Positions 1,833 to 44,634 of a stretch of 64,000 nucleotides of DNA are shown here, in pieces. The DNA is from a virus (Duplodnaviria; Caudoviricetes). The stretch is from IMG/VR virus record IMGVR_UViG_3300042294_003246. The stretch is one strand, 5' to 3'. Under the pieces are notes generated by a model. The model was not told the DNA's origin, did not search any database, and worked only from the letters and a program-made list of their open reading frames with translations. How positions within the stretch are numbered: position 1 is the first letter of the stretch; the number at the start of each line of letters is the position of its first letter. The position numbers and the translations under genes are program-made.

Positions 1833-1992
1833 TAAGTCAAAAGTTGGTTTTGCTCAATAGAGTTAAAGTAATATATTCTTATTACGTATTTCTTCGTATT
1901 TATTAGTAGTCTCGACCGGCCCATGGTAGATGGGGGTTTCCAATAGGATTCTTCAAGTGAGCGTTAAATTTACTTAAACAAGTTTGTACGCA

Positions 1993-4900
1993 ATGAAGAA
2001 TTTATTATTATCGATTTTTGTTTTTATTACAAGTTTTGTTTTTTCACAATCTTGCACACATACGATCAGACTGACTGATACATTTGGTGATGGTTGGAAT
2101 GGAGGTGCGGTTTCTGTATCGGTAAACGGAGTGACTGTATTGAGTAATATAACATTTACTTCAGGATTTGGCCCTGTCAATTTCAATTTTACGGCAGCAA
2201 CTGGTGCTACAATTAGAGTTTGGAGAACTTTAGCGGGAAGTTGGCCAAGTGAAATGAGGGTTCAAATAGTAAACAACACAGGAACAATTCTTTTAAATAC
2301 CATACAACCTGTTACGGGAACAGCAACGACGGGTGGTTATACATGTAATGCTATTTGTTTTATTGTAACTCCAGGTTGCACTAACGTTTCTTCATATGGG
2401 TCTGCAGTTGCTCCATCTACACCAACTACTGTTACAATTAGCTCTTGTAATTTTCAAAGTGAATACAGCACGGTTTCAGGTATTGTTGCTGGTCAAACAT
2501 ATCAATTTGGTTATAGTCTTGGAGGTTATATTACGGTTCATACAGGAACATATAACGGACCTATCGTTGCTTATGGAAATGCACCATTAAATTGGGCATC
2601 AAGTTATACTGGAACCGTTTATGTCCACTACAATACAAATTCAAGTTGTGGAACGACATCTTCATGTGGAACATCTACTGTGACTTGTGTTACTTGTTCC
2701 GCTCCAGCGGCCCCTGCAAATGATTTAGTTTGTAACGCAACACCAATTGTCTGTGGTCAGATGATATCAGGAACAACAGTAAATGCAACTAACAGTGGAA
2801 CGGGAGAAAATGGTATTTGTGGTATTTCACAAACAATGCCAGGTGTTTGGTATAGAGTTACAGGTAATGGTCAAATAATGACCGCTCATTTATGTAATAC
2901 TGCTTGGGATAGTAAAATATCTGTTTTTAGTGGAACTAGTTGTTCCGCATTAACTTGTGTAGGTGGGAATGATGATAACGGACCATTATGTGTTGGAACT
3001 TCAGCATCATATCAATGGACATCAGTTGTTGGACTTAACTATTATATTCTTGTTCATGGATATAGTTCATCAAGTGCATTTCAATTAGGATTAACATGTT
3101 CAACTCCACCACCACCAAACCCAACCTCAATTACAGCAACTTCAAATACAATATGTGTTGGTCAATCAACTACATTAACGGCAAACGGGGCAAGTGGAAC
3201 TGTATATTGGTTTACAGGAGGATGTGGTGTAGGTCAGATTGCAACAGGGAACTCAATAAGTGTAACCCCATCGACAACCACAACATATTACGCAAGAAAC
3301 TACAATGGAGTTCAGTTTAGTAACAATTGTGTGTCTACAACAGTAACGGTAAATAACAATCCGGTCGTATCAACTTCTGCAAGTTTAAGCACAATTTGTC
3401 AGGGTTCATCAACACAACTAAATTCATCTGTTACGGGAGTGTCATCTCCAGGTTCTCTTGCAGTTACAATAACAGGGGGATTATTAGATGAAACAAGTTG
3501 GACTCTAACAAATAATCTTGGAGTTATAATTGGTTCAGGAGGTCCTTATTTCACATCACCTAACGTCACAAATATTGCTTCTTCTGCTAATGGTCCTTAT
3601 GTTTTTTATATTGAAACTATGGGAAGCTGGAATGATAATGTCCCAACCTTTACTATAACTTGTAATGGGTCTACAATACTTTCAGGCTCAATTGGAGGGG
3701 GTTCACAAAATAACTATTGGGTATCAAGTTGCACAACAGCTCCGGTTGTAAATTATATTTGGTCACCATCAACAGGGTTGTCAAACCCAAATATACAAAA
3801 TCCGATAGCAAACCCATCAACTACAACAACCTATACTGTTACTGCAACTTCTAATGGTTGTAGTGGAACTTCAAGTAGAACAATAACCGTAAATCCATTA
3901 CCGAATGTAAGTGCAGGGTCTAATCAAACTGTTTGTTCAGGAACTCAAGTAACACTTAATGGTTCTGGAGCATCAACATACTCTTGGAATAACAGTGTGA
4001 CTAATGGAGTGGCTTTTACACCAACATCAACGCAAACTTATACGGTTACAGGCACAAACGCAAATGGATGTTCTAATACCTCAAGCACTACCGTCACTGT
4101 TCTATCCAATCCTTTGGCAAGCGCAGGAGGGTCTAATAATGGAACATCAACTTGTGGTATAAATCAAGTAACTTTGGGGGCTAACACACCACAAGCGGGT
4201 GAAACAGGAACATGGTCAGTTGTAAGTGGTGTTGGAGGAAGTTTTTCAAATATAAATTCACCCACATCTACGTTTATTGGAAACTATGGCTCAACATATA
4301 CTCTTCAATGGACTGTCTCAAACGGAAATTGTTCTACACCCAATAATATGTTAGTTACATTCAATCAACCAAATGCTTCGTCTTTAGGAGGTGCAATTGG
4401 AACAAACGACTTTTTATGGGGAGGGCTCACTTCTGTTGATTGGTCAACTTCAACAAACTGGTATCAAAAACAAGCTGCAGGACATTTCATTAGAATGTCA
4501 GGAGTTTCACTTCCAACAATAGCAAGTCAGGTTTTTACTTTGGACCAAGTAAATGGCGGAATTTGTATTGGAAACACAACACCAACTTTAAGTGTGAATG
4601 GAGATGCTTATGACGTTTTTATAAATTCAGGAATTACTCTTAATTTAACAAACGACAGTTTGAAAATATCACATGATATCGTAAATAATGGGACATTGAT
4701 CGCAAATACTGGAACTATAAATTTTGTTGGAAATCAAAACTCATCTTTCAATGGAAACGGAACATCACAATTATTTAACATGAAAGTTAATAAATCACAA
4801 GGGGCAACACTAACACTTGGTAACCATGTGAATGTTACTGGTAACTTAAATATGATTCAAGGAAATATTTTTACCTCAAACAACTCCTTATTAACACTAG

Positions 4901-6024
4901 GTTCAAGTAGTTCAAATATAGGTTCATTAACATATAATACAGGAACAATCGTTGGACCGTTCAAAAGATTTTTTAATAATTTATCAACAAACGGTAACGA
5001 GGGACTATTTCCCGTTGGAACTTCAAACTACAACAGATATGCAAGTTTTCAGTTCACAACTTCTCCTGGGGTGAATCAGTCTTTAACTGTTCAATATAAG
5101 AATGGAGCTCCAATTGTTAATGGCACACCTTTATATAATGGACTTCCATTTATGGCCTCAAACGCACTTATTCAAAATTATTCAATTGACGGATATTGGG
5201 AAGTTATACCGACATCAAATAACTATTCGTCTTCAATTTGTCAAACACCGTATAATCTAACTTTATTTGCAAATAACCTTAACGGAATGACAACTCCACA
5301 AATATGCAGAATTATTAAATCTCCTGGTTCAGTTCATACAAGTTGGCAACCATGCGGAAGTCATGTTGCAATACCTGCAAATGCTAATCCAATGGCATTT
5401 TTAATTACAAGCAATAATACACAAGGGTTTAGTTGGTTTAATATTGGGTCGTCTAATTCACAAATTCTTCCTGTTGAGTTATTATCATTTGATGGATCTT
5501 GTAATGATAATGTCATCACATTGGACTGGAAAACAGCAACTGAACATAATTCACATTATTTCGAAATACAAAAATCAAGGGATGGTGAAAATTGGTCTTC
5601 ACTAACAACTTTGGGATCTGCCGGTAACTCAACTCAAGAATTGTCATATACCACAAAAGATGAAAATGCAATCGACGGAAACAATTATTACAAATTAATT
5701 CAATATGATATTGACGGACAATTCAAAGAATATGGACCAATCAATGTGATTTGTAATGGAAACACAAAAGGATATTTTTCAATATTTCCAAATCCAAGTT
5801 CAGGAGATTTTCAAGTTATATTAAATAATAAAAAAATGATTGGTGAAGGACTATTTATAGTTAAGGATACTAAAGGGTCTGAAGTTTATAACCAAGACAT
5901 AAAAGTTTCAACCGGAATAAATTTGTATAATATTTCTGGTTTAAATTTAAGTCCGGGGGTTTATTATGTTAGCATAACTTCTAATGGAATAACTTCTGAA
6001 ACTATAAAACAAATAATAAAATGA
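1993..6024 (+). CDS. Large secreted Ig/PKD-repeat protein with T9SS type A C-terminal sorting domain
   Basis: Signal peptide MKNLLLSIFVFITSFVFSQ; Thr/Ser/Gly/Cys-rich Ig-like repeats; LPVELLSF Ig domain; C-terminal IFPNPSSG...GVYYV motif. ATG at 1993 preferred to TTG at 1984. Confidence 0.9.
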   Translation: MKNLLLSIFVFITSFVFSQSCTHTIRLTDTFGDGWNGGAVSVSVNGVTVLSNITFTSGFGPVNFNFTAATGATIRVWRTLAGSWPSEMRVQIVNNTGTILLNTIQPVTGTATTGGYTCNAICFIVTPGCTNVSSYGSAVAPSTPTTVTISSCNFQSEYSTVSGIVAGQTYQFGYSLGGYITVHTGTYNGPIVAYGNAPLNWASSYTGTVYVHYNTNSSCGTTSSCGTSTVTCVTCSAPAAPANDLVCNATPIVCGQMISGTTVNATNSGTGENGICGISQTMPGVWYRVTGNGQIMTAHLCNTAWDSKISVFSGTSCSALTCVGGNDDNGPLCVGTSASYQWTSVVGLNYYILVHGYSSSSAFQLGLTCSTPPPPNPTSITATSNTICVGQSTTLTANGASGTVYWFTGGCGVGQIATGNSISVTPSTTTTYYARNYNGVQFSNNCVSTTVTVNNNPVVSTSASLSTICQGSSTQLNSSVTGVSSPGSLAVTITGGLLDETSWTLTNNLGVIIGSGGPYFTSPNVTNIASSANGPYVFYIETMGSWNDNVPTFTITCNGSTILSGSIGGGSQNNYWVSSCTTAPVVNYIWSPSTGLSNPNIQNPIANPSTTTTYTVTATSNGCSGTSSRTITVNPLPNVSAGSNQTVCSGTQVTLNGSGASTYSWNNSVTNGVAFTPTSTQTYTVTGTNANGCSNTSSTTVTVLSNPLASAGGSNNGTSTCGINQVTLGANTPQAGETGTWSVVSGVGGSFSNINSPTSTFIGNYGSTYTLQWTVSNGNCSTPNNMLVTFNQPNASSLGGAIGTNDFLWGGLTSVDWSTSTNWYQKQAAGHFIRMSGVSLPTIASQVFTLDQVNGGICIGNTTPTLSVNGDAYDVFINSGITLNLTNDSLKISHDIVNNGTLIANTGTINFVGNQNSSFNGNGTSQLFNMKVNKSQGATLTLGNHVNVTGNLNMIQGNIFTSNNSLLTLGSSSSNIGSLTYNTGTIVGPFKRFFNNLSTNGNEGLFPVGTSNYNRYASFQFTTSPGVNQSLTVQYKNGAPIVNGTPLYNGLPFMASNALIQNYSIDGYWEVIPTSNNYSSSICQTPYNLTLFANNLNGMTTPQICRIIKSPGSVHTSWQPCGSHVAIPANANPMAFLITSNNTQGFSWFNIGSSNSQILPVELLSFDGSCNDNVITLDWKTATEHNSHYFEIQKSRDGENWSSLTTLGSAGNSTQELSYTTKDENAIDGNNYYKLIQYDIDGQFKEYGPINVICNGNTKGYFSIFPNPSSGDFQVILNNKKMIGEGLFIVKDTKGSEVYNQDIKVSTGINLYNISGLNLSPGVYYVSITSNGITSETIKQIIK

Positions 6025-9979: not shown

Positions 9980-10531
9980 ATGATTAACCCAACAGGAAAA
10001 AAATTAGAGAAACTTTTATTTGGAATGTTTGACGACGCCATACAAGGTGTTGATACATATAACCATAATGGTAGTATGTGGTTGATCTTTACTGATGAAA
10101 TGAAATGGGTTGTGGAATACACTAAAGAACAAACACTATGGTATAATTACTATTTCTTCAAAAACGAAATGGAAATGATAAACTTGGATTGTGTTGATAA
10201 TAAAGACCTTATTCAAAAATGGTTTGAGTCAAGATTTTTGAATAAGAATGAGGTTAAAGAAACTGACAAATCTAATTCCAATTATCGTTTGTGTGTTAAA
10301 GACACCATTCAAAATGGTGTAAAAAACACCTGCTGGAATCGTGGAAGCAAAAACACCCGAGTTAAAGACACCATTCAAAATGGGGTAAAAAACACCCGTG
10401 GATATGTAAAACAGATTGATTCGTTGGTTAAAGACACCATTCAAAATGGGGTAAAAAACACCCAAGCCCCTTACCATTCGTTATATGAGTTAGTTAAAGA
10501 CACCATTCAAAATGGGGTGAAAGAAAAATAG
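9980..10531 (+). CDS. Hypothetical protein, conserved ~105-aa N-domain plus 22-aa VKDTIQNGVKNT repeat units
   Basis: Paralogue of 21016 and 21707. Confidence 0.8.
   Translation: MINPTGKKLEKLLFGMFDDAIQGVDTYNHNGSMWLIFTDEMKWVVEYTKEQTLWYNYYFFKNEMEMINLDCVDNKDLIQKWFESRFLNKNEVKETDKSNSNYRLCVKDTIQNGVKNTCWNRGSKNTRVKDTIQNGVKNTRGYVKQIDSLVKDTIQNGVKNTQAPYHSLYELVKDTIQNGVKEK
10295..10528. CRISPR. CRISPR-like array in frame inside ORF 9980: 4 repeats (36 nt), 3 spacers (30 nt)
   Basis: GTTAAAGACACCATTCAAAATGGGGTAAAAAACACC at 10295, 10361, 10427, 10493 (last degenerate); spacers unique, exactly 30 nt. Confidence 0.7.
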
Positions 10532-10566: not shown

Positions 10567-10980
10567 ATGAAGAAGATTTATTTAGACGATGTTAGAACGC
10601 CTGTTGATAAAGAATGGATTGTTGTTCGTTCTTACGATGAGTTCGTTGAAAAAATAAATGAGATTGGTTTGAATAATATCCAACTCATTTCGTTAGATCA
10701 CGATTTGGGTGATACCGCAATTGATGAGTGGAAAAGAAATGTTTATACAAACTACACAATTAATTACGATAACATTACCGAAAAGACCGGTATGGATTGT
10801 GTTAAATGGTTGGTTAATGAATGGATGAATGGTAAACCTGTTGTTGATGTTGTGGTTCATTCACACAACGCAATTGGAAGTGGTAATATGTGTGGTTATA
10901 TCAACAACTACAGACACATCAATCGTTTAAAACAAAATTGCATTAGACTTGAGTGGGATTATACAATAGAAAAAATATAA
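10567..10980 (+). CDS. Cyclic-phosphate processing receiver-domain protein
   Basis: IYLDDVRTP and ISLDHDLG motifs, VHSHN. Confidence 0.8.
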   Translation: MKKIYLDDVRTPVDKEWIVVRSYDEFVEKINEIGLNNIQLISLDHDLGDTAIDEWKRNVYTNYTINYDNITEKTGMDCVKWLVNEWMNGKPVVDVVVHSHNAIGSGNMCGYINNYRHINRLKQNCIRLEWDYTIEKI

Positions 10981-10983
10981 GAA

Positions 10984-11508
10984 ATGGATTTAACTAAACT
11001 AACAATGGACGAACTTATTTCTTTAAGAAATAAAATTGAAGGACTTATTCATTCATATGAGGACGGTTATATCTACATATGTTCTGTTCGTCAGTTCGGT
11101 AGTGTTTGGGAAGAAAGACCAACCAGTCTGTATTCATTAAGGGAATTGTGTGATTCTTATTACGGCGACAATGGAATTGTTGATGTTTATACCAATAATC
11201 CAAATTTGGAATTTCCTGAAATGGAGTTTTATAATTATGGTGATGTTATGTATATCAATTCAGAATATGATTACAGGGAGTGGATTAAACACACTAAGGC
11301 TAAAAATCTTATTGAAGATGTAACTGAACGACTTGATGAGTGGGACAAAAGTAAAGATAAACCATTTCAATACCGACCATCTTCCAAACCAATATGGACA
11401 AGAGAAGATGTTAGTGAATGGATTAAAGAGTTTGAAAATACCAAGTGGGATTTTGTTGAACCAAGATCTATGAAGAAAGAATATTCTGAAGAAGATAGTG
11501 ACGAATAA
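10984..11508 (+). CDS. Hypothetical protein
   Basis: 174-aa ORF. Confidence 0.7.
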   Translation: MDLTKLTMDELISLRNKIEGLIHSYEDGYIYICSVRQFGSVWEERPTSLYSLRELCDSYYGDNGIVDVYTNNPNLEFPEMEFYNYGDVMYINSEYDYREWIKHTKAKNLIEDVTERLDEWDKSKDKPFQYRPSSKPIWTREDVSEWIKEFENTKWDFVEPRSMKKEYSEEDSDE

Positions 11509-11532
11509 AAAAAATATTATTATTTTTGTAAA

Positions 11533-12660
11533 ATGGAAAATTTAAATAGTGTTGCATATGTAGGTAAAGTTGGTGTTCCAACTCAAATACCAGGTGCTGA
11601 TAATATAGAACTTGTTACGGTTAATGGTTGGATGGCCATAACCAAAAAAGGTGAATATAAAGAAGGAGACTTGGTTGTTGTTGCAACTACTGACGCTGTA
11701 ATACCACAAGAATTATCTGATAGTATGGGAGTAACTGGTTACCTTCGTAAAGGTCAACGAGTTAGAACCGTGAAACTTCGTGGAGTTTACTCTGAATGTT
11801 TAATAATACCAACTAAATACATACCCGGATATGGAGATCAATATTACGAGGGTATGGATATGATGGAAAGGTTGGGTATATTCAAATACGAACCTCCTGT
11901 TAAGATGGTTGAAATGAGTGTTGGTGGAAGAAAAATCAAATACTACCAAAATCCAAACTTCCATGTTTACTATAAGTTTCCAAATCAAAAGAATGTGCCC
12001 GATATGTTCAATGAAGAGGACGAAGTGGTTATAACAAGAAAACTTCACGGAACTAATGCTCGTTATGCGATAGTTAGGAAGAAAAAACTTTCTTTGTGGG
12101 ACCGAGTTAAAATATTCTTCGGTGATAAATGGAAGGCCTTTGATTACATCTATGGGTCTCATAATGTTGAGAAAGGATCTGACTCACAAGGGTTTTATTC
12201 TACAGATGTTTGGGATGAGGTTGCAAAAAAATACAATATCCGATCAAAACTTTGGAATCACCTAAAAGATACTTACAATCCTGAAGATTTGGAACAGGGT
12301 TTTATTATATATGGTGAAATATATGGTGCTGGCATACAAAAAAACTATGACTATGGTTTATCTGATATAAAATTTGCAGGATTTGATGTTGAGGTTGATG
12401 GAGAATACGAACCATATATGAGAGAAAAAACACACTTCGAGGTAATGGATTTACCACAAGTTGATGTGTTATATCATGGTAATTGGAATAAAGAAGAACA
12501 AGACAAATACGTCTTCAACAACTTTATTGAAGGATCTAAAGTTCCTCATGAAGGTGTTGTTGTAAAGTCAATTACCGGTGATCGTCACAAAGTGGCAAAA
12601 GTTATCAATCCTGACTATTTGATCTACGGAGAAAAAAATAATGTTGGTGACTCCCATTAA
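11533..12660 (+). CDS. RNA ligase (DRB0094/Rnl2-like family)
   Basis: N-terminal IPGADNIE...GQRVRTVKLRGVYSE OB-like region; motif I KLHGTN; IYGEIYG, FAGFDV, HEGVV, KVIN. Confidence 0.9.
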   Translation: MENLNSVAYVGKVGVPTQIPGADNIELVTVNGWMAITKKGEYKEGDLVVVATTDAVIPQELSDSMGVTGYLRKGQRVRTVKLRGVYSECLIIPTKYIPGYGDQYYEGMDMMERLGIFKYEPPVKMVEMSVGGRKIKYYQNPNFHVYYKFPNQKNVPDMFNEEDEVVITRKLHGTNARYAIVRKKKLSLWDRVKIFFGDKWKAFDYIYGSHNVEKGSDSQGFYSTDVWDEVAKKYNIRSKLWNHLKDTYNPEDLEQGFIIYGEIYGAGIQKNYDYGLSDIKFAGFDVEVDGEYEPYMREKTHFEVMDLPQVDVLYHGNWNKEEQDKYVFNNFIEGSKVPHEGVVVKSITGDRHKVAKVINPDYLIYGEKNNVGDSH

Positions 12661-17423: not shown

Positions 17424-17870
17424 ATGAAAATAATAATAACAGAAAGTCAGTATAATCTTTTATTTGAAAATAAAAAAAATCAATCTTTAATTGATATTAT
17501 TAAAGAAGAAGGTTGGGAATCTGCCGCTGAATTAGTTGGAGGTATTGAGAATCTTAAAAAATTGACAGGAATTGAAACTCCTATAGATTTTTTAAATATT
17601 TTTACTGATTTGGATGTTGTTCAGAGTGAAGAAGAACCTAATTGGACTTTATTTAGGTATGAAAAAAAAAATAATGTAATGATTTACGATAGAAAAAATA
17701 ACAATGTTTATATATATTATGATGTTATTTGGCCATTTTTAGAAGAAGGTTTTGATCTTAAAAACTCTGAAATACAACAACTTACAGAAGAGTGGTTGTC
17801 TGAGGCTTACAATTTGAGGGGAGTAACAACTTATCCATCTATAATGGGTCGGCACTCATTAGTTGTCTGA
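17424..17870 (+). CDS. MKIIITE-leader hypothetical protein ending in a CRISPR-like unit
   Basis: Paralogue of 47879. Confidence 0.75.
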   Translation: MKIIITESQYNLLFENKKNQSLIDIIKEEGWESAAELVGGIENLKKLTGIETPIDFLNIFTDLDVVQSEEEPNWTLFRYEKKNNVMIYDRKNNNVYIYYDVIWPFLEEGFDLKNSEIQQLTEEWLSEAYNLRGVTTYPSIMGRHSLVV

Positions 17871-17880
17871 GGCTTACAAT
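17795..17880. CRISPR. Mini-array: 36-nt type VI-B-like repeat, 31-nt spacer, 19-nt partial repeat
   Basis: GTTGTCTGAGGCTTACAATTTGAGGGGAGTAACAAC (17795-17830); exact copy of first 19 nt at 17862-17880. Confidence 0.65.
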
Positions 17881-18009: not shown

Positions 18010-18645
18010 ATGAAAGTTATATTCTTGGATATTGATGGAGTTATGAACTCTAATGTTTTTTATAAAGAAAGACATAGAAGACGATGGAGAAAACCTATCA
18101 CATGGTGGTATGAATTAAAGCGATTGGTTAGAAAATTGTTTAGAATTAAATCAAAAGGAGTTTCTTTGGCGGATTATAAACCACCTAAAAAGTCTTTCAC
18201 TTTTGAATATCAATTCAAGGATTTACGAGAAGAAACTTGTGATCAAAAGTGGAAATGGTTGAGCGAATGGTGTAATAAAACTAACACAAAAATTTGTGTT
18301 TCTTCGAGTTGGAAACATCACTTTCGTATTGAGGATCATATATCAACACCTTATAGATGGGAAGACGCATTTGTTAAACTTGGATTTAAACCAGGAACTT
18401 ATGTAGGAATCACTGGTAATAGAAGAACTTTACGAGGTGAAGAAATTAAAGAGTGGTTGGATCAACACCCTGAAGTTGATGATTACGCAATATTAGACGA
18501 TGATTCAGATATGTTGACAGAACAATTTTCAAAGTTCCATCACTGTGACACTTGGTTTGGTTTATCCCCAAACCACTTGTATAGAATTGGAAGACAATTT
18601 GAAAACAAAAGTAATTACGAAAGATTAACACAAACAATAAGATAA
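18010..18645 (+). CDS. HAD-superfamily (Swiss Army Knife RNA-repair-like) protein
   Basis: IFLDIDGV, VSSSW, RGEEIKEWL, YAILDDDSDM. Confidence 0.85.
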   Translation: MKVIFLDIDGVMNSNVFYKERHRRRWRKPITWWYELKRLVRKLFRIKSKGVSLADYKPPKKSFTFEYQFKDLREETCDQKWKWLSEWCNKTNTKICVSSSWKHHFRIEDHISTPYRWEDAFVKLGFKPGTYVGITGNRRTLRGEEIKEWLDQHPEVDDYAILDDDSDMLTEQFSKFHHCDTWFGLSPNHLYRIGRQFENKSNYERLTQTIR

Positions 18646-19232
18646 TGAAAGTTATATTCTTAGATCATGATAGTGTAATTTGTCTCTCTAATAATTGGGG
18701 TAGTCGTTACAAAAAACAACACAAATGGGGAGGAAGAAAATTATCCATGACCCCAAGAGAAATTCCGGTGCAATATCGTTTTGATGACTTTGATAAAGGG
18801 ACAATTAAAGTTCTAAATGAGATCATTGAAGAAACTGGATGTGAAATAGTGGTAAGTTCTGATTGGAGATTACATGCAACACTTGATGAACTTGGTGATT
18901 ACTATATTAGTCAAGGTATTATTAAACGACCAATTGCGGTGACTGACATATTTAGAGACCTTTTTCCAAAAGAATGGAATGCGTTTAGATTTCGTGCTGA
19001 GTTGGAATTAGAACGAAGTATGGAGATCGGACATTGGTTAAAGAATCATCCTGAAGTCACACATTGGGTTGCGATTGATGATCTTAATATGAGTCTTGAG
19101 TTTTTATCAAAATACTTCTTGGATAGTGAGGATAAAAACCCTGGTCTAACTAATTTTGTTTTAACACCAAGATCAAGAGAAGGTATTAAACAAAGTGGGA
19201 TTAAAGAAAAGGTTATTAATTTTTTAAAATGA
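18645..19232 (+). CDS. HAD-superfamily protein, paralogue of 6249
   Basis: IFLDHDSV (G to S), VVSSDWR, VAIDD. Confidence 0.8.
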   Translation: MKVIFLDHDSVICLSNNWGSRYKKQHKWGGRKLSMTPREIPVQYRFDDFDKGTIKVLNEIIEETGCEIVVSSDWRLHATLDELGDYYISQGIIKRPIAVTDIFRDLFPKEWNAFRFRAELELERSMEIGHWLKNHPEVTHWVAIDDLNMSLEFLSKYFLDSEDKNPGLTNFVLTPRSREGIKQSGIKEKVINFLK

Positions 19233-19322
19233 AAAGAACAATTCAAAAGATTCTTCTTTGGTGGTCGTTTAGATTTCCAAAGAAAAAACGAAAATCAATT
19301 TGGAATCTTTAAATTATATTAT

Positions 19323-19709
19323 ATGACAGATAAAGAAATGAATGAGTTTTTGGAATCCATTGGAGGATTAGAAAATGGATTTTACAATGATAGACCACCA
19401 ATTAAAGACTCCGGATTCTTTGATGTTGGTTCTGGTTGGTATTCACTAATTAAGGATCTTATAATTGATCTTATTGAGTTAGGATGGGATAAACAAACTT
19501 GTCAGGTGAAGGAAAAGTTTGGTGGATTAAGATTTTATATTAACGGGGCATCAAACGAGGTTCATAAAAGAATAAGTCGGGCGGAAAATCTAAGTTATGA
19601 AACTTGTGAGAAATGTGGCGAAAAAGGAGAATTAAGAACAAATATTGGTTGGCATACCACATTATGCGATAAACATTATGAAGAACATAAATCAAATATT
19701 CAAAGGTAA
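19323..19709 (+). CDS. Conserved phage hypothetical, paralogue of 7014
   Basis: QVKEKFGGLRFY. Confidence 0.75.
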   Translation: MTDKEMNEFLESIGGLENGFYNDRPPIKDSGFFDVGSGWYSLIKDLIIDLIELGWDKQTCQVKEKFGGLRFYINGASNEVHKRISRAENLSYETCEKCGEKGELRTNIGWHTTLCDKHYEEHKSNIQR

Positions 19710-19989
19710 TGAACATTTAATGGATTTGGCACCTATTGAGGAGTTAATCGACTATTGTGTTGAGTTGGAAGGTCAGGTGCTTGAAAAAAAAATAGATGAT
19801 ACTTATAGTAAAGAAGAAATTTATTTACAGATACTAAAAGACATCTATGATAGTTGTATCAATACTTTGACCGATGATGAGTTGGCTCAAACATTTGAAG
19901 AACTACCAAAAACAGATTTTAAACAATCTGTAATAAATTTAAAAAAATACATGGAGGCCGTATCAGAATTATACGGTATTAGATTATGA
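19645..19989 (+). CDS. Hypothetical protein, paralogue of 7357
   Basis: ELIDYCVELEG; real start probably the later MKNINQ. Confidence 0.65.
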   Translation: MVGIPHYAINIMKNINQIFKGNEHLMDLAPIEELIDYCVELEGQVLEKKIDDTYSKEEIYLQILKDIYDSCINTLTDDELAQTFEELPKTDFKQSVINLKKYMEAVSELYGIRL

Positions 19990-20303
19990 GTGAAACAACA
20001 AAACAAAAAGTAAAAATGATTATGGTCCAAGAAAAACCATATATCGTATCGTTAGAGAAAATCGAAATCGGTGATAATGTTATAGTTACAGTTGCAGGTC
20101 AACACGGATCACTTATAAAATGTGAAAACGAGACAATTTATAATTTGGTCACACAAAATAAACTTTCTTCAAATCAGGCGTATAAGGTCTTCATGGAACC
20201 AGAAAACATTAAATTTCAAGCAGATCAAATTGAAAAGATCTTGGAAAATGATGGGTTAATGGACGTTGAGTTTGAGAATGGAGTATATAAATACAGCATA
20301 TGA
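19986..20303 (+). CDS. Hypothetical protein
   Basis: ORF; its 3' end recurs as a fragment at about 29335-29408. Confidence 0.7.
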   Translation: MSETTKQKVKMIMVQEKPYIVSLEKIEIGDNVIVTVAGQHGSLIKCENETIYNLVTQNKLSSNQAYKVFMEPENIKFQADQIEKILENDGLMDVEFENGVYKYSI

Positions 20304-20409
20304 CAAACGTTTTAGAAACTTATGTTCATCTATATGGAATATTATTTGTAATCAACATAATCGGGTTTTATTTACTCTATAGATATTTTAAGAAAAGAAA
20401 AAAGAAATA

Positions 20410-20625
20410 ATGGCTTATATTGAACACAACTTCTTTCCCTTAAAAGTTTGGGTTAGAAATGAATACATGTATCAACATAAAAAAGGACTTGGTGAATTGA
20501 CACCAGGAGTTATAATCTCTGTTAGATGCATGCCAGGTCAAGCGGCACTATTTCAGGTGTTATTGGAAAATGGTGTTTTAAGAGACAAACTCCCAAGTCA
20601 TGCTTTATGGTTAAGATCAAGATAA
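20410..20625 (+). pseudogene. Truncated copy of the 29512 gene
   Basis: Matches the first ~66 aa of ORF 29512 up to KLPSHAL, then diverges and stops. Confidence 0.75.
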
Positions 20626-20696
20626 ATTTATTTTGAACGAAAAGTTTAGTATAAATACCTATTGTCTGAACTTTAAAAAAATCTTATATTTGTATT

Positions 20697-21014
20697 ATGG
20701 AAAAAGTTATTATTGAAAAAGATAAATTACGCAAATGTGTGATCTTGGAAAAAGATGGTGAATATGTATTTCGTTCAGGACATGGAGAGTTCCACGAAGA
20801 TGTTGCAAATAGATCCAAAGAACTTGAACCAGAATTAAAGGATTGGAGAATTCTTGGTGGTGGAAGAGTTAGATGGTCTGATCTTGGAATTAGAGTATAT
20901 GGACGATCAATTGATTATGGTTATATGGATAAAGAGATCGTGGAAGAACTTGTTTCAGAGTTCGCAAAAGAAAATGGTGTTGAATTTACTAACGATACAG
21001 GAATAGGATATTAA
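20697..21014 (+). CDS. Janus/Ocnus family (PHPT1-like phosphohistidine phosphatase) protein
   Basis: EFHEDV, ILGGGRV, IRVYGRSIDYG match the PHPT1 pattern EYHADI / LGGGRI / IHVYGYSMAYG as recalled. Confidence 0.65.
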   Translation: MEKVIIEKDKLRKCVILEKDGEYVFRSGHGEFHEDVANRSKELEPELKDWRILGGGRVRWSDLGIRVYGRSIDYGYMDKEIVEELVSEFAKENGVEFTNDTGIGY

Positions 21015-21015
21015 A

Positions 21016-21585
21016 ATGAAAAATCCATCAGGAAAAAAATTAGATAAGATTTTGTTCAAACTATTTGACCAAATGATTGAAGGTGTTGACCAATACAATC
21101 ATAGTGGTAGTTTATGGATCATCTTTACCAATGAACGACAATGGGTTGTTGAATATACCGAAGGAGGAACTCTATGGTATAACTACAAACTATTCAAAAA
21201 TGAAATGGAATTGGTTGGTATGGATTGCGTTGAAAATAAAGAATACATAACCAGATGGTTTGAATATAGATTTTTGAATAAACCAAAGGTTGATAAAACT
21301 TGGGACAATCCGGTAGATGTGTGGTATCAAATTGAAGACACCATTCAAAATGGGGTGAAGAACACCAAGGTTAGGTCCGCATTGCGCAGGATATCAGTTG
21401 AAGATACCATTCAAAATGGGGTGAAACACACCGGCGGAAAATTGGCTTCGCTGGCCGACCTGGTTGAAGACACCATTCAAAACGGGGTAAAGGAGACCCA
21501 AGAGTGGCGTTTGGATGCGACTCATTATATTATAGACACAATTGAAAATGGAGTGAAACAAACAAAACGAAGTTATGATGGTTAA
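21016..21585 (+). CDS. Paralogue of 9980 with in-frame repeat-spacer units
   Basis: MKNPSGKKL N-domain plus xEDTIQNGVK units. Confidence 0.8.
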   Translation: MKNPSGKKLDKILFKLFDQMIEGVDQYNHSGSLWIIFTNERQWVVEYTEGGTLWYNYKLFKNEMELVGMDCVENKEYITRWFEYRFLNKPKVDKTWDNPVDVWYQIEDTIQNGVKNTKVRSALRRISVEDTIQNGVKHTGGKLASLADLVEDTIQNGVKETQEWRLDATHYIIDTIENGVKQTKRSYDG

Positions 21586-21702
21586 AGAAAACAGAGAACG
21601 AAATATGTCGTTGAAAATGGGGTGAAACACACTACAGGAACATCAACTGACTTACGATATAAAAGGGTTGAATATACCATTCAAAACGGAGAAAAAATTA
21701 AA
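21331..21702. CRISPR. CRISPR-like array: repeats at 21331, 21397, 21463, 21529 and degenerate 21598, 21667
   Basis: 36-nt repeats; spacers 30,30,30,33,33 nt; first three spacers 47-63% GC; array continues past the ORF stop. Confidence 0.7.
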
Positions 21703-21706
21703 TAAA

Positions 21707-22897
21707 ATGAATAATCCATCAGGAAAAAAATTAGAGAAACTTGTCTTTGGGTTGTTTGACCAAATGATTGAAGGTGCAGACAAGTATATTACAGAACAAG
21801 GTTCAACTTGGTTGATCTTTACCGAAGACAAAAGATGGGTGGTTGAATTCACAAAAGATAAAACTTTGTGGTTCAACTATAACCTATTTCAAAATGAGTT
21901 AGATCTAGTCAGTAAGGACTGCACTCAAGAAAGAGATTTGATCAAGAACTGGTTTGAATCAAGATTTTTGGGTATTGATGTGGTTGAGGAAAGTTTAAGC
22001 ACTGCTGGAAAACCATTGAAGGTTAAAGATACCATTCAAAATGGGGTGAAACACACTTGGGATTTAAATGCGGATGAAATTTCTGCAGTTAAAGACACCA
22101 TTCAAAATGGGGTAAGACACACCGATTATTTTGAATATACTAATAATACCTTAGTTGAAGATACCATTCAAGAGGGGGTGAAAGAAACCAATTACAAAAT
22201 TGGTTACCGAAAAGGTGGTATTGAAATCGCAATTCAAAATGGTGTAAAAGAAACACGAACATTCAATTCACCACCAATTAAATACATTGAAGACACCATT
22301 CAAAATGGGGTGAAAGAAACAACACCTAGTGGTTATTTGGGTTCAATGGAGATGAAAGGGAAAATAGTTCATCAAATTGAATCTCCAAAACAAAATAATG
22401 AGGTTGAAGACACCATTCAAAATGGGGTAAGACACACCGAAGTAGATGGGATGAGGATAAGGAGTGGGGTTAAGGACGCCATTCAAAATGGAGTAAAGGA
22501 CACTGTGTTAGCAAAAACGGATAGATTAGTCGGTATTGAAGACACCATTCAAAGTGGTATTAAAGACGTATCTGATAGACCATTCACATTTGGATCAAGT
22601 ATTGATGATGCCATTGAAAATGGTGTTAAAGAAACTAGAGAGGTAACATTCTTGAACCAAATGTTTATTGAAGAAACAATTGAAAAAGTTACACCAGATG
22701 GTGGAGTTGAAATTCCTTCTGATATGAAAGTTGGAACTGGATTGATGAATATGGTAAAAGAATTACGTGATAATGAATGGAGAACATTTGAACATCACGA
22801 TAATTGGATTAAAAACGAACATTATCCAAATCCAACATTTGAACAACAATTTGATACAGGTAATGCTTATAAAGAAATGTTAAAAACTAAAATTTAA
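21707..22897 (+). CDS. Paralogue of 9980 with ~10 repeat units and unrelated C-terminal tail
   Basis: Start placed at ATG 21707 (MNNPSGKK) by paralogy. Confidence 0.8.
   Translation: MNNPSGKKLEKLVFGLFDQMIEGADKYITEQGSTWLIFTEDKRWVVEFTKDKTLWFNYNLFQNELDLVSKDCTQERDLIKNWFESRFLGIDVVEESLSTAGKPLKVKDTIQNGVKHTWDLNADEISAVKDTIQNGVRHTDYFEYTNNTLVEDTIQEGVKETNYKIGYRKGGIEIAIQNGVKETRTFNSPPIKYIEDTIQNGVKETTPSGYLGSMEMKGKIVHQIESPKQNNEVEDTIQNGVRHTEVDGMRIRSGVKDAIQNGVKDTVLAKTDRLVGIEDTIQSGIKDVSDRPFTFGSSIDDAIENGVKETREVTFLNQMFIEETIEKVTPDGGVEIPSDMKVGTGLMNMVKELRDNEWRTFEHHDNWIKNEHYPNPTFEQQFDTGNAYKEMLKTKI
22022..22702. CRISPR. CRISPR-like array: repeats at 22022, 22088, 22154, 22220, 22286, 22403, 22469, 22535, 22601, 22667
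   Basis: Eight 30-nt spacers and one 81-nt; repeats degenerate toward the right. Confidence 0.65.
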
Positions 22898-22901
22898 AAC
22901 T

Positions 22902-23552
22902 ATGATGAAAATTGAAGCAAAAAAAGACGGTAAAGGAAACATTGTAATATCGGAAGATTCCTTTGAAATGATACTGGCTTGTTTAGACAATCAAAAATTT
23001 GTTGGTGAACAGCCACAAAATGGTGATTCGCTTTCGGTAGGCGAAGACAACTATTGGAAAGGACAAGAAGATATTCAAAACACTATTGACCATTATAATA
23101 GAGAATGTAGAAAAATATTACATCAAAAATATGTTTTAAGAACAGAATGTGATGGTTATTTTCTTGCAAAAAAATACGAACATCAAACAGAAGATGCTGA
23201 ATGGACTGGTGAAGATGTTGGATTAGTATATGAACTATTCAAAGATACAAGAATAATTTATAATGAAACAAGAGATTTATTACCATTGGATGGCTCGGAA
23301 AAAATTATAGAGGGAACTGAACCTATTGGTAAAACGAAAGATGGTTGGATTGCAGTTAAACCTGAACCAACACCTTGGTTAATTGAAAGACCATTAAGGT
23401 ATGATTATCAATATTTGACAATTTCAGAAGACGGTAAAACAAATAGAACTTGGAAACAAGATGAAATTAACAAAATTCAAGAATTATTTAATGGTGGGGG
23501 AGAAAAAAGAAAAGAAAAAGATATTACAGACGAACCTTCAATCGAAGACTAA
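22902..23552 (+). CDS. Hypothetical protein
   Basis: 216-aa ORF ending just before the first attC. Confidence 0.7.
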   Translation: MMKIEAKKDGKGNIVISEDSFEMILACLDNQKFVGEQPQNGDSLSVGEDNYWKGQEDIQNTIDHYNRECRKILHQKYVLRTECDGYFLAKKYEHQTEDAEWTGEDVGLVYELFKDTRIIYNETRDLLPLDGSEKIIEGTEPIGKTKDGWIAVKPEPTPWLIERPLRYDYQYLTISEDGKTNRTWKQDEINKIQELFNGGGEKRKEKDITDEPSIED

Positions 23553-34707: not shown

Positions 34708-35556
34708 ATGATTATCTATAAAATAACTAACAATCTTAATAATAAAATCTATATCGGTCAAGATAGAAATAATAACCCATCTTACTTCGGAAGTGGTAAA
34801 AAAATACAAAGAGCCATAAAAAAATATGGTAAAGAAAATTTTGTAAAAGAAATTTTAGAAGAGTGTGTTGATGAAAATCATATGAATGAAAGAGAAGTTT
34901 ACTGGATATTAAAATATAATAGTCAAGATAGAAAAATTGGTTATAATATAAGTAATGGTGGTAAAGAGGGTGACAGACAAATAGGTCAAGACATTACTAA
35001 AAACGGAATTTATAATTATTGGGTTGAAAAACACGGTCAGGAAGAAGCTGATATTAGAAAAAAACAACAAATTGAAAAAATCATAAAACATAACAAGGAA
35101 AACGGCACAGAACTAACTAAAAAAGGTCGTTATAGTTTATGGTTAGAAAAATATGGTAAAGAAGAGGCCGATAGAAGACATTTTGAATGGAGATTAAAAA
35201 TATCACAACATCAGCAATATAAATTAGAGAATGGGTGGAAGCATACTGACGAAGCCAAAGAAAAAATATCAAAGGCGGGTAAAGGTAGGAAACTATCTGA
35301 AGAAACAAAAAATAAAATGAGAAAACCTAAACCAAAAGGGTTTTCAGAAAAACTATCAAAATTGAAAAAAGGTGTGTCAACAGGATCATCAAAAAAAAGA
35401 TTACAGGTTTTACAATTTGATTTAAATGGTAATTTACTTTATACTTGGGATAGTATAACAGAAGTTGAAAAACAATTAAAAATATTCAATATATCTGCGG
35501 TATGTAAAGGAAAACAAGAAACCGCTGGTGGTTATAAATGGGAATATAAAAAATAA
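34708..35556 (+). CDS. GIY-YIG homing endonuclease with NUMOD3/NUMOD1 motifs
   Basis: IIYKITN..N.KIYIGQ; KHTDEAKEKIS; AGGYKWEY. Confidence 0.88.
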   Translation: MIIYKITNNLNNKIYIGQDRNNNPSYFGSGKKIQRAIKKYGKENFVKEILEECVDENHMNEREVYWILKYNSQDRKIGYNISNGGKEGDRQIGQDITKNGIYNYWVEKHGQEEADIRKKQQIEKIIKHNKENGTELTKKGRYSLWLEKYGKEEADRRHFEWRLKISQHQQYKLENGWKHTDEAKEKISKAGKGRKLSEETKNKMRKPKPKGFSEKLSKLKKGVSTGSSKKRLQVLQFDLNGNLLYTWDSITEVEKQLKIFNISAVCKGKQETAGGYKWEYKK

Positions 35557-35561
35557 CGAAA

Positions 35562-36656
35562 ATGAATAATTTAGACAAACAATACCAAGATTTACTTCAA
35601 GATATTTTGGATAATGGGGTAAAAAAAGAAACAAGAAATGGAGGAACCATCAGTGTTTTTGGTCGTCAGATCAGACACAACATGAGTGAAGGATTTCCTT
35701 TACTCACAACCAAGAAAATGTTTTGGAAAGGAATTGTAACTGAATTGATTTGGTTCCTACGTGGTGATACGAACATTAAATACCTTATAGATAATGATTG
35801 TCATATTTGGGACGGTGATGCTTATAAGAACTACGGTCAAAAGATTATCTCTGGAGGTTACCAAAATTTAGTTGCAATAGGATGGCCTAGTACACAAGAA
35901 GAGTTCATCAACAAAATCAAAACAGATGATGAGTTTGCTAAGAAGTGGGGAGATTTAGGTCCTGTGTATGGTAGACAATGGAGAGCGTGGGGTGGCTTTG
36001 ATAAAAAACCTTCAGGATGGAATCATGGGGCTGTTACTCATTTTTCTGAAGTGCCTAAACTTGACCAGATAAAAAATCTTATTCACGACCTTAAAACAAA
36101 TCCTGATAGCCGAAGATTGATGGTTACAGCTTGGAACCCATCGGAATTGGACCAGATGACTCTTCCACCTTGTCATTATGGATTTCAAATTTATACAAGA
36201 GAGTTCAGTTTACAGGAAAGAAAAGACATATATGATAAATCGTCTTATGTTAAAGATATTTTTCCGACAGATGAAAATGGATGGAATAGTTTATTCAATG
36301 ATTGTAGTATACCAACCAGGGCAATCTCTTTAATGTTCAATATGAGAAGCAATGATGTTCCGCTCGGGCTTCCATTTAATTTGGCTTCATATGGGTTACT
36401 TTTGATGATATTGGCAAAAGAGGTTAATATGGTACCTGAAGAATTGATTTCAAATATGGGAGATTGTCACATATATCTAAATCAAATTGATGGTGTGAAA
36501 GAACAATTAACAAGAGAACCATTTGAATTACCAACTCTTAATCAGTTCCCCACCTATGAAGGTTCAAGACCATCAATAGAATCTTATACTATTGGCGATT
36601 TCACACTTAAAAATTACAAATCACACCCAAGTATAAAAATGCCACTTTCTAACTAA
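35562..36656 (+). CDS. thyA: Thymidylate synthase
   Basis: FPLLTTKK, LGPVYGRQWR, LPPCH, RSNDVPLGLPFN, GDCHIY. Confidence 0.97.
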   Translation: MNNLDKQYQDLLQDILDNGVKKETRNGGTISVFGRQIRHNMSEGFPLLTTKKMFWKGIVTELIWFLRGDTNIKYLIDNDCHIWDGDAYKNYGQKIISGGYQNLVAIGWPSTQEEFINKIKTDDEFAKKWGDLGPVYGRQWRAWGGFDKKPSGWNHGAVTHFSEVPKLDQIKNLIHDLKTNPDSRRLMVTAWNPSELDQMTLPPCHYGFQIYTREFSLQERKDIYDKSSYVKDIFPTDENGWNSLFNDCSIPTRAISLMFNMRSNDVPLGLPFNLASYGLLLMILAKEVNMVPEELISNMGDCHIYLNQIDGVKEQLTREPFELPTLNQFPTYEGSRPSIESYTIGDFTLKNYKSHPSIKMPLSN

Positions 36657-36711
36657 CTTTTTATTATTTGAGGATATTTATATTAAAGGATAAACCTTAA
36701 AGTAAATCAAT

Positions 36712-37545
36712 ATGAAGAAATTTTTAGTTTATGAAATAAAAAACAACATTAATGGTAAATCTTATGTCGGACAATATAGTGGATTATCATTTGAAAAATA
36801 TTTTGGGAGTGGAAAGTTGATTAAGTTAGCCATAAAAAAATATGGGTTAGAAAATTTCTCTAAAACTATTTTAGAAGAGTGTTCTAATAAAGATGAGTTG
36901 AATGAAAAAGAAATTTTTTGGATTGATAAACTCAAAACAATTGCAAACGGCTATAATTTAACTGAAGGTGGCACTGGTGGAGATTTATCTGAATTTATTA
37001 AGTATGATGAGAATTGGGTTGAAAACCAAAGACTCTCAACAAAAAAGTATTGGGACAATATCAGTGATGATGAAAGAAAAAAAAGAAGTGAAAGTGTATC
37101 TGGCGAAAAAAATGGAATGTATGGTAAAGAAGGATTTTGGAAAGGTAAGAAAATACCTAAAGAAATTGTAAAAAAATCATTAGATAATAGAAGAAGTTAT
37201 GATAAAGAACAAAATCCTAATTGGAAGGGAGGTTTAACTTATGTCTATTGTGAATGTGGTAAAAGAATAGGTTACGGTCACACTCATTGTAATAAATGTA
37301 GACCAAGAAGTAATGACGATAATCCATTTTTTGGTAAACAACATTCGGAAGAAACTAAAAATAAGTTAAGTGAAATCAGAAAAGGAACTTATAATGGAGA
37401 ACAGAATATACCAATAATAATTGATGATGTTGAATACCGTTCTGCTGGTGAGGCATCCAAAATACTTAATCTACCTATGGCAACGATAAGATGGAGGGTT
37501 TTAAGTAAAAATAAAAAATTTGACAATTACAAATACAAAGATTAA
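36712..37545 (+). CDS. GIY-YIG homing endonuclease with NUMOD3 motif
   Basis: VYEIKN.INGKSYVGQ; GYNLTEGG; KQHSEETKNKLS. Confidence 0.88.
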   Translation: MKKFLVYEIKNNINGKSYVGQYSGLSFEKYFGSGKLIKLAIKKYGLENFSKTILEECSNKDELNEKEIFWIDKLKTIANGYNLTEGGTGGDLSEFIKYDENWVENQRLSTKKYWDNISDDERKKRSESVSGEKNGMYGKEGFWKGKKIPKEIVKKSLDNRRSYDKEQNPNWKGGLTYVYCECGKRIGYGHTHCNKCRPRSNDDNPFFGKQHSEETKNKLSEIRKGTYNGEQNIPIIIDDVEYRSAGEASKILNLPMATIRWRVLSKNKKFDNYKYKD

Positions 37546-43306: not shown

Positions 43307-43819
43307 ATGAATAAGTTTGATTTAACCGAAAAATTGAAAGAAGAATTAAAAAAAAGAAATCTTTGGGAACAAGAAGATGATGAAGATAATGATGATAATG
43401 AGTCTGATGATAATCAAGATGACGAAGATTCAGACGAAGATTCAGAAAATCATAACGAAGATTTCTGTGAAATGGTTTGTCAGTTATTACACTCACAAAC
43501 ACAAATTCATATTTTCCATTTAGGGACCAAATCATATGCCGAACATAAAGCATTACAGGGTTATTACGAAGGTATTGATGCTTTAACTGATGGTCTAATT
43601 GAATCTTATCAGGGTAAATATGGTCTTTTAACAAATTACAAATCATATAAGAATCAATCATACAAAAACAAAAACCAAGTATTAAAATATTTTACAAGTT
43701 TATTAAATATGATTGAAGAAAAAAGAGAATCGGTTGAGGACTCTTACATCCAAAACCAAATTGATACGGTTCAAGAATTGATTTATTCAACAATGTATAA
43801 GTTGAAATTTCTTAACTAA
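43307..43819 (+). CDS. Ferritin-like DUF5856 protein with acidic N-terminal linker
   Basis: Q.HIFH..T.SYAEHKAL..YY....L.D.L.ESYQG.YG. Confidence 0.75.
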   Translation: MNKFDLTEKLKEELKKRNLWEQEDDEDNDDNESDDNQDDEDSDEDSENHNEDFCEMVCQLLHSQTQIHIFHLGTKSYAEHKALQGYYEGIDALTDGLIESYQGKYGLLTNYKSYKNQSYKNKNQVLKYFTSLLNMIEEKRESVEDSYIQNQIDTVQELIYSTMYKLKFLN

Positions 43820-44634
43820 TCTATTTCGTAAATATTATTTATTACATTCAGAGGATCTCCTTCACAATCACCTTCATAATTTCGGCATAGTTGGTCGACT
43901 TCAATCTTGTCGTCAACCTCACTGATATCAAGTAATATTGGTTCTGAATGATATATCATATTAACTTGATCATCGTTCAAGAATGTATCTACAGGTAATG
44001 ATTTAAGTTCAGGGTTCAAACCAAAAAAATCAATTTCATCTTCTGTATAGTATTCATCACTTGATTCATAGTCACCATTTCCATCACAATAATCACAATC
44101 AACTTGTCCATAACCATCACATCTATCACAGCCAAATTCACCTTTACCATCACACCAAGAACATTCAATTTCACCATTTCCTTGACAATCTGAACATGGT
44201 TCACCATCTACTTCACCAGATCCATCACAGTTTCTACATTCTTCAGTTCCATTTCCTGAACATCTATCACAATCTACATCACCACTACCATCACATGTGC
44301 TACAATATTCAGTTCCTGATCCATCACATTCATGACAAGTTATATCACGATAACCCAAATCTCTATAATGATACATTCCGATGTTTATAAGATTACCACG
44401 AACTTTAGAAAAAGAAGATTCAATATCTTTAGTTCGTGAAAAGAAGTAAACCATAAACGCGATCTCTACTTTTTCTATTCTTTTAACATTCTTCAAAAGA
44501 AGTTTCAATAGTTCATCACTATTGATATGACTCATAATTTGTTGAACATTCATATCATTATCACCATGTTCATCAACTAAATGATTATAAACTTGTTTTG
44601 TGAATACTTTATATTTTGAAGGTTGTAAGGACAT
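43816..44634 (-). CDS. Protein with DnaJ-type CxxCxGxG zinc-finger repeats
   Basis: Eight tandem CxxCxG[N/S/K/Y]G motifs; no J-domain HPD. Confidence 0.75.
   Translation of the reverse strand: MSLQPSKYKVFTKQVYNHLVDEHGDNDMNVQQIMSHINSDELLKLLLKNVKRIEKVEIAFMVYFFSRTKDIESSFSKVRGNLINIGMYHYRDLGYRDITCHECDGSGTEYCSTCDGSGDVDCDRCSGNGTEECRNCDGSGEVDGEPCSDCQGNGEIECSWCDGKGEFGCDRCDGYGQVDCDYCDGNGDYESSDEYYTEDEIDFFGLNPELKSLPVDTFLNDDQVNMIYHSEPILLDISEVDDKIEVDQLCRNYEGDCEGDPLNVINNIYEID

Follow-up and report, generated by a model that had tools for sequence, protein, structure and literature searches.

Is a row of 36-nt repeats separated by 30-nt inserts in a phage genome a CRISPR locus or part of a protein, and from where are its inserts drawn? 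The question is raised by array 3, at positions 22022-22702 of a 64,000-nt stretch of Caudoviricetes DNA (IMG/VR record IMGVR_UViG_3300042294_003246). We refer to this whole stretch as the window. A first-pass annotation, made from the sequence alone, had taken array 3 for a CRISPR array domesticated into a 22-aa solenoid. Our analysis shows array 3 to be the translated repeat region of a protein from a lake phage rather than a functioning CRISPR array. Comparison with bacterial genomes shows, in addition, that N-proximal inserts of sister arrays (here termed cassettes) are verbatim pieces of about 30 nt from scattered chromosomal genes of a putative host.

Array 3 and its protein family

The gene that holds array 3 has the following parts:

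21707..22897, + strand: gene 3 (P0001), an open reading frame (ORF) of 396 aa comprising the N-domain, ten 22-aa units and a 70-aa lineage-specific tail
21707..22021, + strand: conserved N-terminal alpha/beta domain of about 90 aa plus linker (fold modelled with AlphaFold2, AF2)
22022..22702, + strand: array 3, ten 36-nt cores, eight 30-nt cassettes and one 81-nt cassette
22322..22402, + strand: conserved long cassette of 81 nt (27 aa), present with no more than two substitutions in 72 of 287 family proteins
22667..22686, + strand: last core, truncated; synteny break or recombination junction relative to the sister phage L001

Array 3 consists of ten 66-nt units, each a 36-nt core plus an insert, with cores starting at 22022, 22088, 22154, 22220, 22286, 22403, 22469, 22535, 22601 and 22667. 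Every unit is in frame with the ORF, and these coordinates bear out the ten repeats, eight 30-nt spacers and one 81-nt spacer of the first-pass annotation and its statement that the frame is kept. At the protein level the core is 12 aa long (V-E-D-T-I-Q-N-G-V-K-x-T) and the cassette about 10 aa, giving a unit of 22 aa. The core motif was observed 19 times in the window against 0.9 expected, and the copies outside array 3 belong to two paralogues, genes 1 and 2.

From the first core to the tenth, mismatches to the family consensus number 3, 3, 5, 10, 4, 2, 8, 9, 10 and 17. The left-to-right degeneration proposed at first thus survives as a trend toward the 3' end, not as a monotonic gradient. 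The amino-acid changes in the cores are mainly conservative, as had been said, with V>I, E>K/D, K>R, T>A and Q>E predominating. The tenth 'repeat' is not a drifted unit, since it is core over its first 20 nt only (22667-22686). Window and L001 are identical through 22686 and unrelated from there on, hence this core marks a recombination junction. Synteny with L001 is lost inside it (22686/22687), with both the 70-aa protein tail and ORF 22902-23552 differing, which suggests that cores also serve as break points for larger genome mosaicism.

Relatives of the 396-aa protein are numerous, with at least 1900-2000 proteins in each of three protein searches, and a profile of the N-domain gave 386 clusters at 50% identity. 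They are encoded on 138 viral contigs, including near-complete genomes of 272 and 292 kb. Of the 124 N-domain proteins above 130 aa in length, 116 had at least two cores. Related phage DNA (1.16 Mb) contains 366 core-like 36-mers, of which 358 are situated within family ORFs and in their frame, with no case of a different frame. Given that only 62% of random host 30-mers are free of stop codons (38% hold one), the array appears to be selected to stay open. DNA and protein searches of cultured phages returned only a chance tape-measure match, and Pfam, PHROGs and PADLOC gave only sub-threshold matches for the three paralogues. Dodecin (PF07311) was rejected, its 16-residue match inside one repeat scoring 19.9 bits against a gathering score of 22.5.

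The AF2 model of the N-domain has a helix, four strands and two helices (predicted local distance difference test, pLDDT, 76-93). No relative of this domain was recovered by VIA-align (best Z 4.5), by Foldseek against AFDB (E at least 0.06), by a PDB profile search (no match) or by an ESM Atlas feature search (nothing usable); stand-alone viral proteins of about 98 aa do have the N-domain fold (TM 0.74). The repeats are modelled as hairpins around an N-G turn, stacked in a beta-helix-like manner with pLDDT about 50, and this model aligns with a SufD-like helix (9h78_B) at Z 14.4 and a root-mean-square deviation of 3.5 over 187 residues. The core may therefore form a beta-hairpin with N-G as its turn, and stacking of these hairpins may give a solenoid, a structure in which we have low confidence; the stacking expected for a 22-aa solenoid was found, but not at a confidence that would establish it. 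A period of about 22 residues is typical of the coils of beta-solenoids and parallel beta-helices. The phage protein resembles these in its period and in its modelled hairpins, which stack and align to beta-helix chains. Unlike them, its cassettes have no inward-facing hydrophobic periodicity, and no positional residue pattern was found in the cassettes either.

Bacterial source of cassettes in sister arrays

All cassettes that match a bacterial genome are N-proximal, and they come from arrays 1 and 2 of the window and from sister phages. The features concerned in the window are:

9980..10531, + strand: gene 1, a 183-aa paralogue with four near-identical cores
10331..10360, + strand: CWNRGSKNTR cassette of array 1, from the same bacterial lineage as those of array 2 (30-nt, 100% match at window 10332-10361 in the bacterial genomes G626 and G652)
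21016..21585, + strand: gene 2 (P0002), a 189-aa paralogue of four units with a stop inside a cassette (orthologues in the sister phages L001-L004, 229 aa)
21367..21396, + strand: KVRSALRRIS cassette of array 2, from a bacterial PGA_cap gene, antisense
21433..21462, + strand: GGKLASLADL cassette of array 2, from a bacterial SIS-domain isomerase gene, sense and in frame
21586..21706, + strand: remnant units of array 2, past the stop codon and in the same frame, two core-like units homologous to L001 units

The three paralogues share an N-terminal domain of about 105 aa, and all have their first core at residue 106. In gene 2 a 33-nt cassette contains a TAA that ends the protein early (region 21565-21706), the intact L001 orthologue having 229 aa. 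A stop inside a cassette, with remnant units behind it, suggests that the arrays change without regard to the reading frame, with filtering as a later step.

The GGKLASLADL cassette, which is high in GC, has an exact match (30/30) in two lake metagenome contigs, inside the gene for a SIS-domain isomerase. These contigs carry Bacteroidota housekeeping genes together with a protein bearing a type IX secretion system (T9SS) tail, and their GC content is 0.42-0.45. Among 301 genomes of the matching Bacteroidota family, the cassette was found in G536, G626 and G652 at 100, 97 and 94%, and KVRSALRRIS matched the same three genomes at 28/30. For both cassettes the ends of the match coincide with the ends of the cassette. 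Further matches were obtained for the following:

CWNRGSKNTR, array 1 of the window: 30/30
QVSWNITTDE, sister phages L003 and L004: 30/31
LHAPSMASFT, sister phage L003: 30/34
YPKELSPTCR, sister phage L003: 28/30
RYAVPRRWNA, sister phages L003 and L004: 34/35

Altogether, seven cassettes match G536, G626, G652 or G684 over 27-30 of 30 bases, with E values of 1e-5 to 4e-9 per genome, whereas control searches with non-array phage DNA gave a best E of 0.005. The seven map to scattered loci of one Bacteroidota lineage, in housekeeping genes, and the borders of the matches are the borders of the cassettes. Six could be placed in G536, where the source loci are rpoB and the genes for the SIS isomerase, shikimate dehydrogenase, PGA_cap, a PolB-like exonuclease and an AAA_11 protein. 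Two of these are sense and in frame, two sense and out of frame, and two antisense, and no motif resembling a protospacer-adjacent motif is evident in the six protospacer flanks. The earlier view of the inserts as spacers therefore stands for N-proximal cassettes of sister arrays as far as their being verbatim pieces of a bacterial chromosome is concerned; it does not stand for CRISPR identity or ancestry.

The Bacteroidota lineage matched by the cassettes is probably the host of the phage. A 1346-aa phage protein encoded at 1984-6024 combines immunoglobulin-like domains with a T9SS C-terminal sorting domain, and this domain points to a Bacteroidota host, in line with the bacterial source of the cassettes.

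When 358 cassettes were compared with related phage DNA (1.16 Mb, family genes excluded) to look for an origin there, the only matches were of 13-20 nt and at chance level. No cassette matched phage DNA, cultured phages included, and no frame-shifted or inverted relations were found among cassettes. Two L003 cassettes found only themselves in viral contigs, the private cassettes of L003 were absent from the best 120 protein matches to its array, and a degenerate peptide pattern had no match in metagenome contigs. The composition of the cassettes correlates at r = 0.87 with random translation versus 0.71 with the phage proteome. Such a composition, and the lack of a positional pattern, would be expected because the cassettes are copies of host DNA read in an arbitrary frame.

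Differences between arrays and the probable ageing of units

Between the window and L001 the N-domains of genes 2 and 3 are about 100% identical, and the arrays differ by whole units. The array 3 orthologues of L001-L004 have 12-17 units compared with 10 in the window. Where the window lacks units of L001 or L002, its core is a chimera of the two cores flanking the missing units, which is indicative of core-core homologous recombination. From these alignments array 3 is best read as a deletion derivative of the longer L001-L004 arrays. The cassettes common to all five phages are C-proximal (the 27-aa cassette, EVDGMRIRSG, VLAKTDRLVG, SDRPFTFGSS and REVTFLNQMF). Differences among the five are N-proximal and internal, the first cassette being conserved in the closest strains, and both filled and empty cassette sites are seen across the sister phages.

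Cassette order across homologues is largely collinear, with the minor order in 30 of 1132 co-occurrences. Pairwise identity of cassettes is at chance level below 5/10 and shows a tail from 9/10 down to 5/10. Duplication of whole units together with their inserts, which the first-pass annotation had named as evidence that would speak against it, does occur (in L002) but is rare, with 5 similar within-protein pairs among 3672 cassettes. Nucleotide-identical cores make up 3.1% of adjacent pairs and 0.1% of non-adjacent pairs, a 30-fold difference, and the 18 cassettes that lie between identical cores are mostly singletons, N-proximal and of odd composition. When the lake metagenome runs X17, X20 and X21 were compared with window 20700-23500, assemblies were found to break at cores, and within single samples many alternative 30-33-nt cassettes sit on the same cores, which implies a large standing diversity of cassettes in lakes.

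The drift of the cores is family-wide. Over 123 homologues, the identity of cores to the consensus is 0.92 for unit 1 but about 0.5 for units 9-10, and this is the polarity whose absence was to have counted against the first reading. Singleton cassettes are commonest N-proximally (27% versus 8-10%). Addition of new units at the N-domain side, as first proposed, is thus consistent with the N-proximal concentration of novelty but does not hold strictly, given the conserved first cassette and the internal differences.

The GC content at third codon positions (GC3) of cassettes changes from 0.40 through 0.33 and 0.31 to 0.24 with increasing degeneration of the flanking cores; the reference values are 0.24 for phage genes and 0.44 for stop-free host 30-mers. 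Young cassettes lie above old ones in GC3 within 29 of 35 genes. Their GC content is flat across codon positions and their amino-acid make-up is that of random translation, the correlation with translated random host 30-mers being r = 0.85 for young and 0.58 for old cassettes. The raw ratio of non-synonymous to synonymous polymorphism (pN/pS) was 0.40 for the N-domain and 0.30 for cassettes, with shared cassettes at about 0.15-0.33. Collectively these values suggest that older cassettes have taken on the codon usage of the phage under purifying selection, in agreement with the protein-level selection on older units that had been postulated. Retention of the same codon across diverged lineages is 0.81 in N-proximal cores versus 0.60 in the N-domain, which fits either a nucleotide-level need of the inserting process or continual homogenisation of the cores.

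We consider it probable that a translated gene gains units from fixed-length pieces of host DNA placed between cores, that recombination between cores reshuffles these units and that distal units age. Birth of a unit would consist of the insertion of a host fragment of about 30 nt between two core copies, mostly N-proximally. Only stop-free inserts would survive, because the gene must stay open. Homologous recombination between cores, as seen in the chimeric cores, deletes, duplicates and reassorts units and would explain how array 3 came to differ from its sisters. Distal units would be the older ones, their diverged cores no longer recombining and their cassettes drifting to phage codon usage under purifying selection, and such ageing would give rise to the left-to-right gradient.

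More tentatively, the insertion itself may be ruler-like: host pieces of about 30 nt would be set between the copies of a duplicated 36-nt core, a step that would either need no Cas1 or borrow some host activity not yet recognised. The phage gene would work in the manner of an adaptation array and turn arbitrary host DNA into loops of a scaffold protein. The array would then be a self-expanding, heritable peptide repertoire and possibly a bridge between CRISPR arrays and repeat proteins. As to function, our guess, held with low confidence, is that the protein serves as a binder or decoy in the conflict between phage and host, its scaffold staying constant while the peptide loops that it presents change.

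GIY-YIG homing endonucleases are encoded on both sides of thymidylate synthase (34708-37545), and in 34 of 79 related loci (L029 among them) a family gene has an endonuclease of this kind at a distance of about 57 nt. It is possible that these enzymes are the source of the breaks that drive array recombination.

Several points weigh against the capture of host DNA as set out here. The nine cassettes of array 3 have no match above control in the four candidate host genomes (best E 0.009), so that their host origin is an extrapolation from the sister arrays. The candidate hosts are metagenome-assembled genomes (MAGs), and host identity is therefore known by inference. Differences between filled and empty sites can be read as insertion or as deletion. 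Local gene conversion could also yield identical adjacent cores, and the pN/pS of cassettes may in part reflect separate captures from different host strains rather than constraint. No inserting enzyme was found among the genes examined. The solenoid model has a pLDDT of only about 50, and the region had no contig in the one metatranscriptome compared, a result that says nothing on expression either way.

Relation to CRISPR arrays and other repeat systems

The best-surviving alternative, which we regard as unlikely, is a domesticated CRISPR array with a core in the style of type VI-B or II-C, which would receive 30-nt prespacers of degraded host chromosome through the Cas1-Cas2 of the host, working in trans. 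In such an array the frame would be kept, since 36 + 30 = 66 nt corresponds to 22 codons. Type VI-B arrays have the same 36/30/66 geometry, with a 36-nt repeat that has complementary 5'-GUUG / CAAC-3' ends and a poly-U loop (Smargon et al., 10.1101/092577). Like the type VI-B (Cas13b) and II-C arrays of Bacteroidota, the phage arrays have direct repeats within the CRISPR range of 23-47 nt and unique, mutually unrelated inserts of similar length, 66 nt apart in period. As there, the inserts are copied from another genome, although this was found for seven sister-array cassettes and for none of those of array 3. The newest inserts are flanked by identical repeats, as they would be after repeat duplication, and the repeats degenerate toward one end. 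The codon retention of N-proximal cores can also be counted in favour of this explanation.

The differences are, however, considerable. A CRISPR array is a non-coding guide-RNA locus, whereas array 3 is translated within a 396-aa protein that has a conserved N-domain, and the inserts of the phage arrays stem from the host chromosome rather than from invaders. The repeat length fits type VI-B, but GTTG starts 398 of about 640 cores while the other end is mostly CACC, and thus only one core end obeys the GUUG...CAAC rule. The core hairpin (CCATT-CAA-AATGG) is no more stable than shuffled sequences, and folds show no terminal pairing. Polarised growth is suggested by the degeneration gradient and the N-proximal novelty, yet sister phages differ internally and share the first cassette. 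The lack of an evident adjacent motif in the six flanks also counts against CRISPR adaptation.

No cas domains are present in window ORFs of at least 250 aa. Cas1 (PF01867) was not found in two related phages that are 93-99% complete or in five candidate host genomes, these being MAGs and possibly incomplete, and no reverse transcriptase (PF00078) was found in four related phage records. Rfam returned no CRISPR repeat family, either for the whole window at the gathering score or for the array at E up to 10. A 20-mer of the core gave eight single chance matches and no array in 185,579 bacterial species genomes, and the candidate hosts hold no VI-B-like repeat arrays above control level. The origin from a CRISPR array claimed in the first-pass annotation is thus not upheld. 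The analogy with type II-C arrays through minus-strand transcription fails too, the neighbouring genes all being on the + strand and a promoter scan showing no excess on either strand.

At 17795-17880 a lone GTTG...CAAC repeat of 36 nt, with TTTGAGGGG at its centre, closes ORF 17424-17870; after it come 31 nt and then a partial copy of 19 nt. This 36-mer (17795-17830) fits the VI-B end rule, occurs once in the window, and could be a solo unit that interferes with host Cas13b. It agrees with the array core at 19 of 36 ungapped positions (P about 5e-4 by shuffling), which favours CRISPR ancestry but is only suggestive.

An ordinary tandem-repeat protein is a still less likely explanation. Here duplication and unequal crossing-over, fast divergence of loops and a shared pool of units would produce the arrays, and the bacterial matches would be incidental. 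The collinear order of shared cassettes, the tandem duplicates, the chimeric cores at deletion junctions and the tail of pairwise cassette identity from 9/10 to 5/10 would all be accounted for. Coding tandem repeats are moreover a known class of false CRISPRs, mistaken for arrays and defined by low spacer diversity (Zhang and Ye 2017, PMC5294841). The phage genes share with these a repeat-spacer layout inside a gene and the lack of cas genes. In contrast to false CRISPRs, they carry inserts of high diversity that are unrelated to one another and can in part be traced to foreign DNA. The explanation is strongly weakened by the seven cassettes at 27-30/30 in one bacterial lineage, with borders at the cassette ends and E values far beyond control. 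The rarity of similar cassette pairs within proteins and the flat codon-position GC and random-translation make-up of young cassettes also stand against it.

A functional guide-RNA array, processed by a host Cas effector and with the ORF incidental or secondary, is very unlikely. Its CRISPR-like geometry, the solitary VI-B-like repeat at 17795 and the matches to host genes would fit. On the other hand, 98% of cores sit within open ORFs and in their frame, even though a stop occurs in 38% of random host 30-mers, and a conserved N-domain is fused to the repeats in 116 of 124 proteins over 130 aa. The protospacer strands are mixed, without the antisense bias expected for mRNA targeting, and the searches described above found no cas genes and no structure signal in the repeat RNA. 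A multi-core peptide precursor of cyanobactin type, with the N-domain as leader and the cores as recognition or cleavage sites that release the cassettes, is suggested by the conserved leader followed by conserved flanks around hypervariable 10-mers but is the least credible of all, since no protease, cyclase or other maturation enzyme is found among conserved neighbours, the cassettes have no positional residue pattern, and host DNA in arbitrary frame is unlike evolved bioactive peptides.

Two other kinds of system diversify proteins in a related manner. Lamprey variable lymphocyte receptor (VLR) assembly, Borrelia vlsE and Neisseria pilE/pilS rely on segmental gene conversion from dedicated silent cassettes of the same family. 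In the phage arrays, too, constant flanks enclose the variable segments and act as recombination handles, and mosaic alleles are drawn from a pool; unlike in those systems, the segments come from unrelated host genes in an arbitrary frame. Diversity-generating retroelements are similar in being phage-encoded and in diversifying a variable protein region. They differ from the present arrays, which have no template repeat and undergo replacement of whole segments, not adenine-specific mutation.

The window is phage DNA with nearly all genes on the + strand, among them genes for an RNA ligase, a thymidylate synthase, a UvrC-like protein, a Y-family polymerase, lysozymes and the protein with the T9SS sorting tail. 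The array-family genes are placed among RNA-repair genes: the flanking regions (10567-12660 and 18010-21014) encode a cREC_REC domain protein, an RNA ligase, two HAD_SAK_2 proteins and a Janus/Ocnus-like phosphatase. Conserved neighbour genes of the family include no candidate for an integrase or a maturation enzyme. A second 66-nt tandem repeat (1.9 copies, 44190-44316) lies in a minus-strand ORF (43816-44634) for a Cys-rich protein with a DnaJ/BSD2-like zinc finger; it is probably an ordinary protein repeat whose shared period is coincidental.

We could not match this host-DNA-capturing way of building a protein to any counterpart among described systems. If it is true, fixed-length foreign DNA is captured between constant repeats outside recognisable CRISPR-Cas, with a protein rather than a guide RNA as the product. 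This would be a new route to protein diversity, in which peptide segments arise de novo from foreign DNA read in an arbitrary frame. In practical terms, thousands of family genes are liable to be called orphan CRISPRs by array finders. The arrays would also be a natural record of the host of the phage, given that a single Bacteroidota lineage is indicated by the cassettes. They could be a living intermediate in which to study the relation of repeat-spacer arrays to repeat proteins, and this relation is open to direct test, since the phage is abundant in many lake metagenomes, the stretch being present in more than 20 from lake water of 2016 to 2024.

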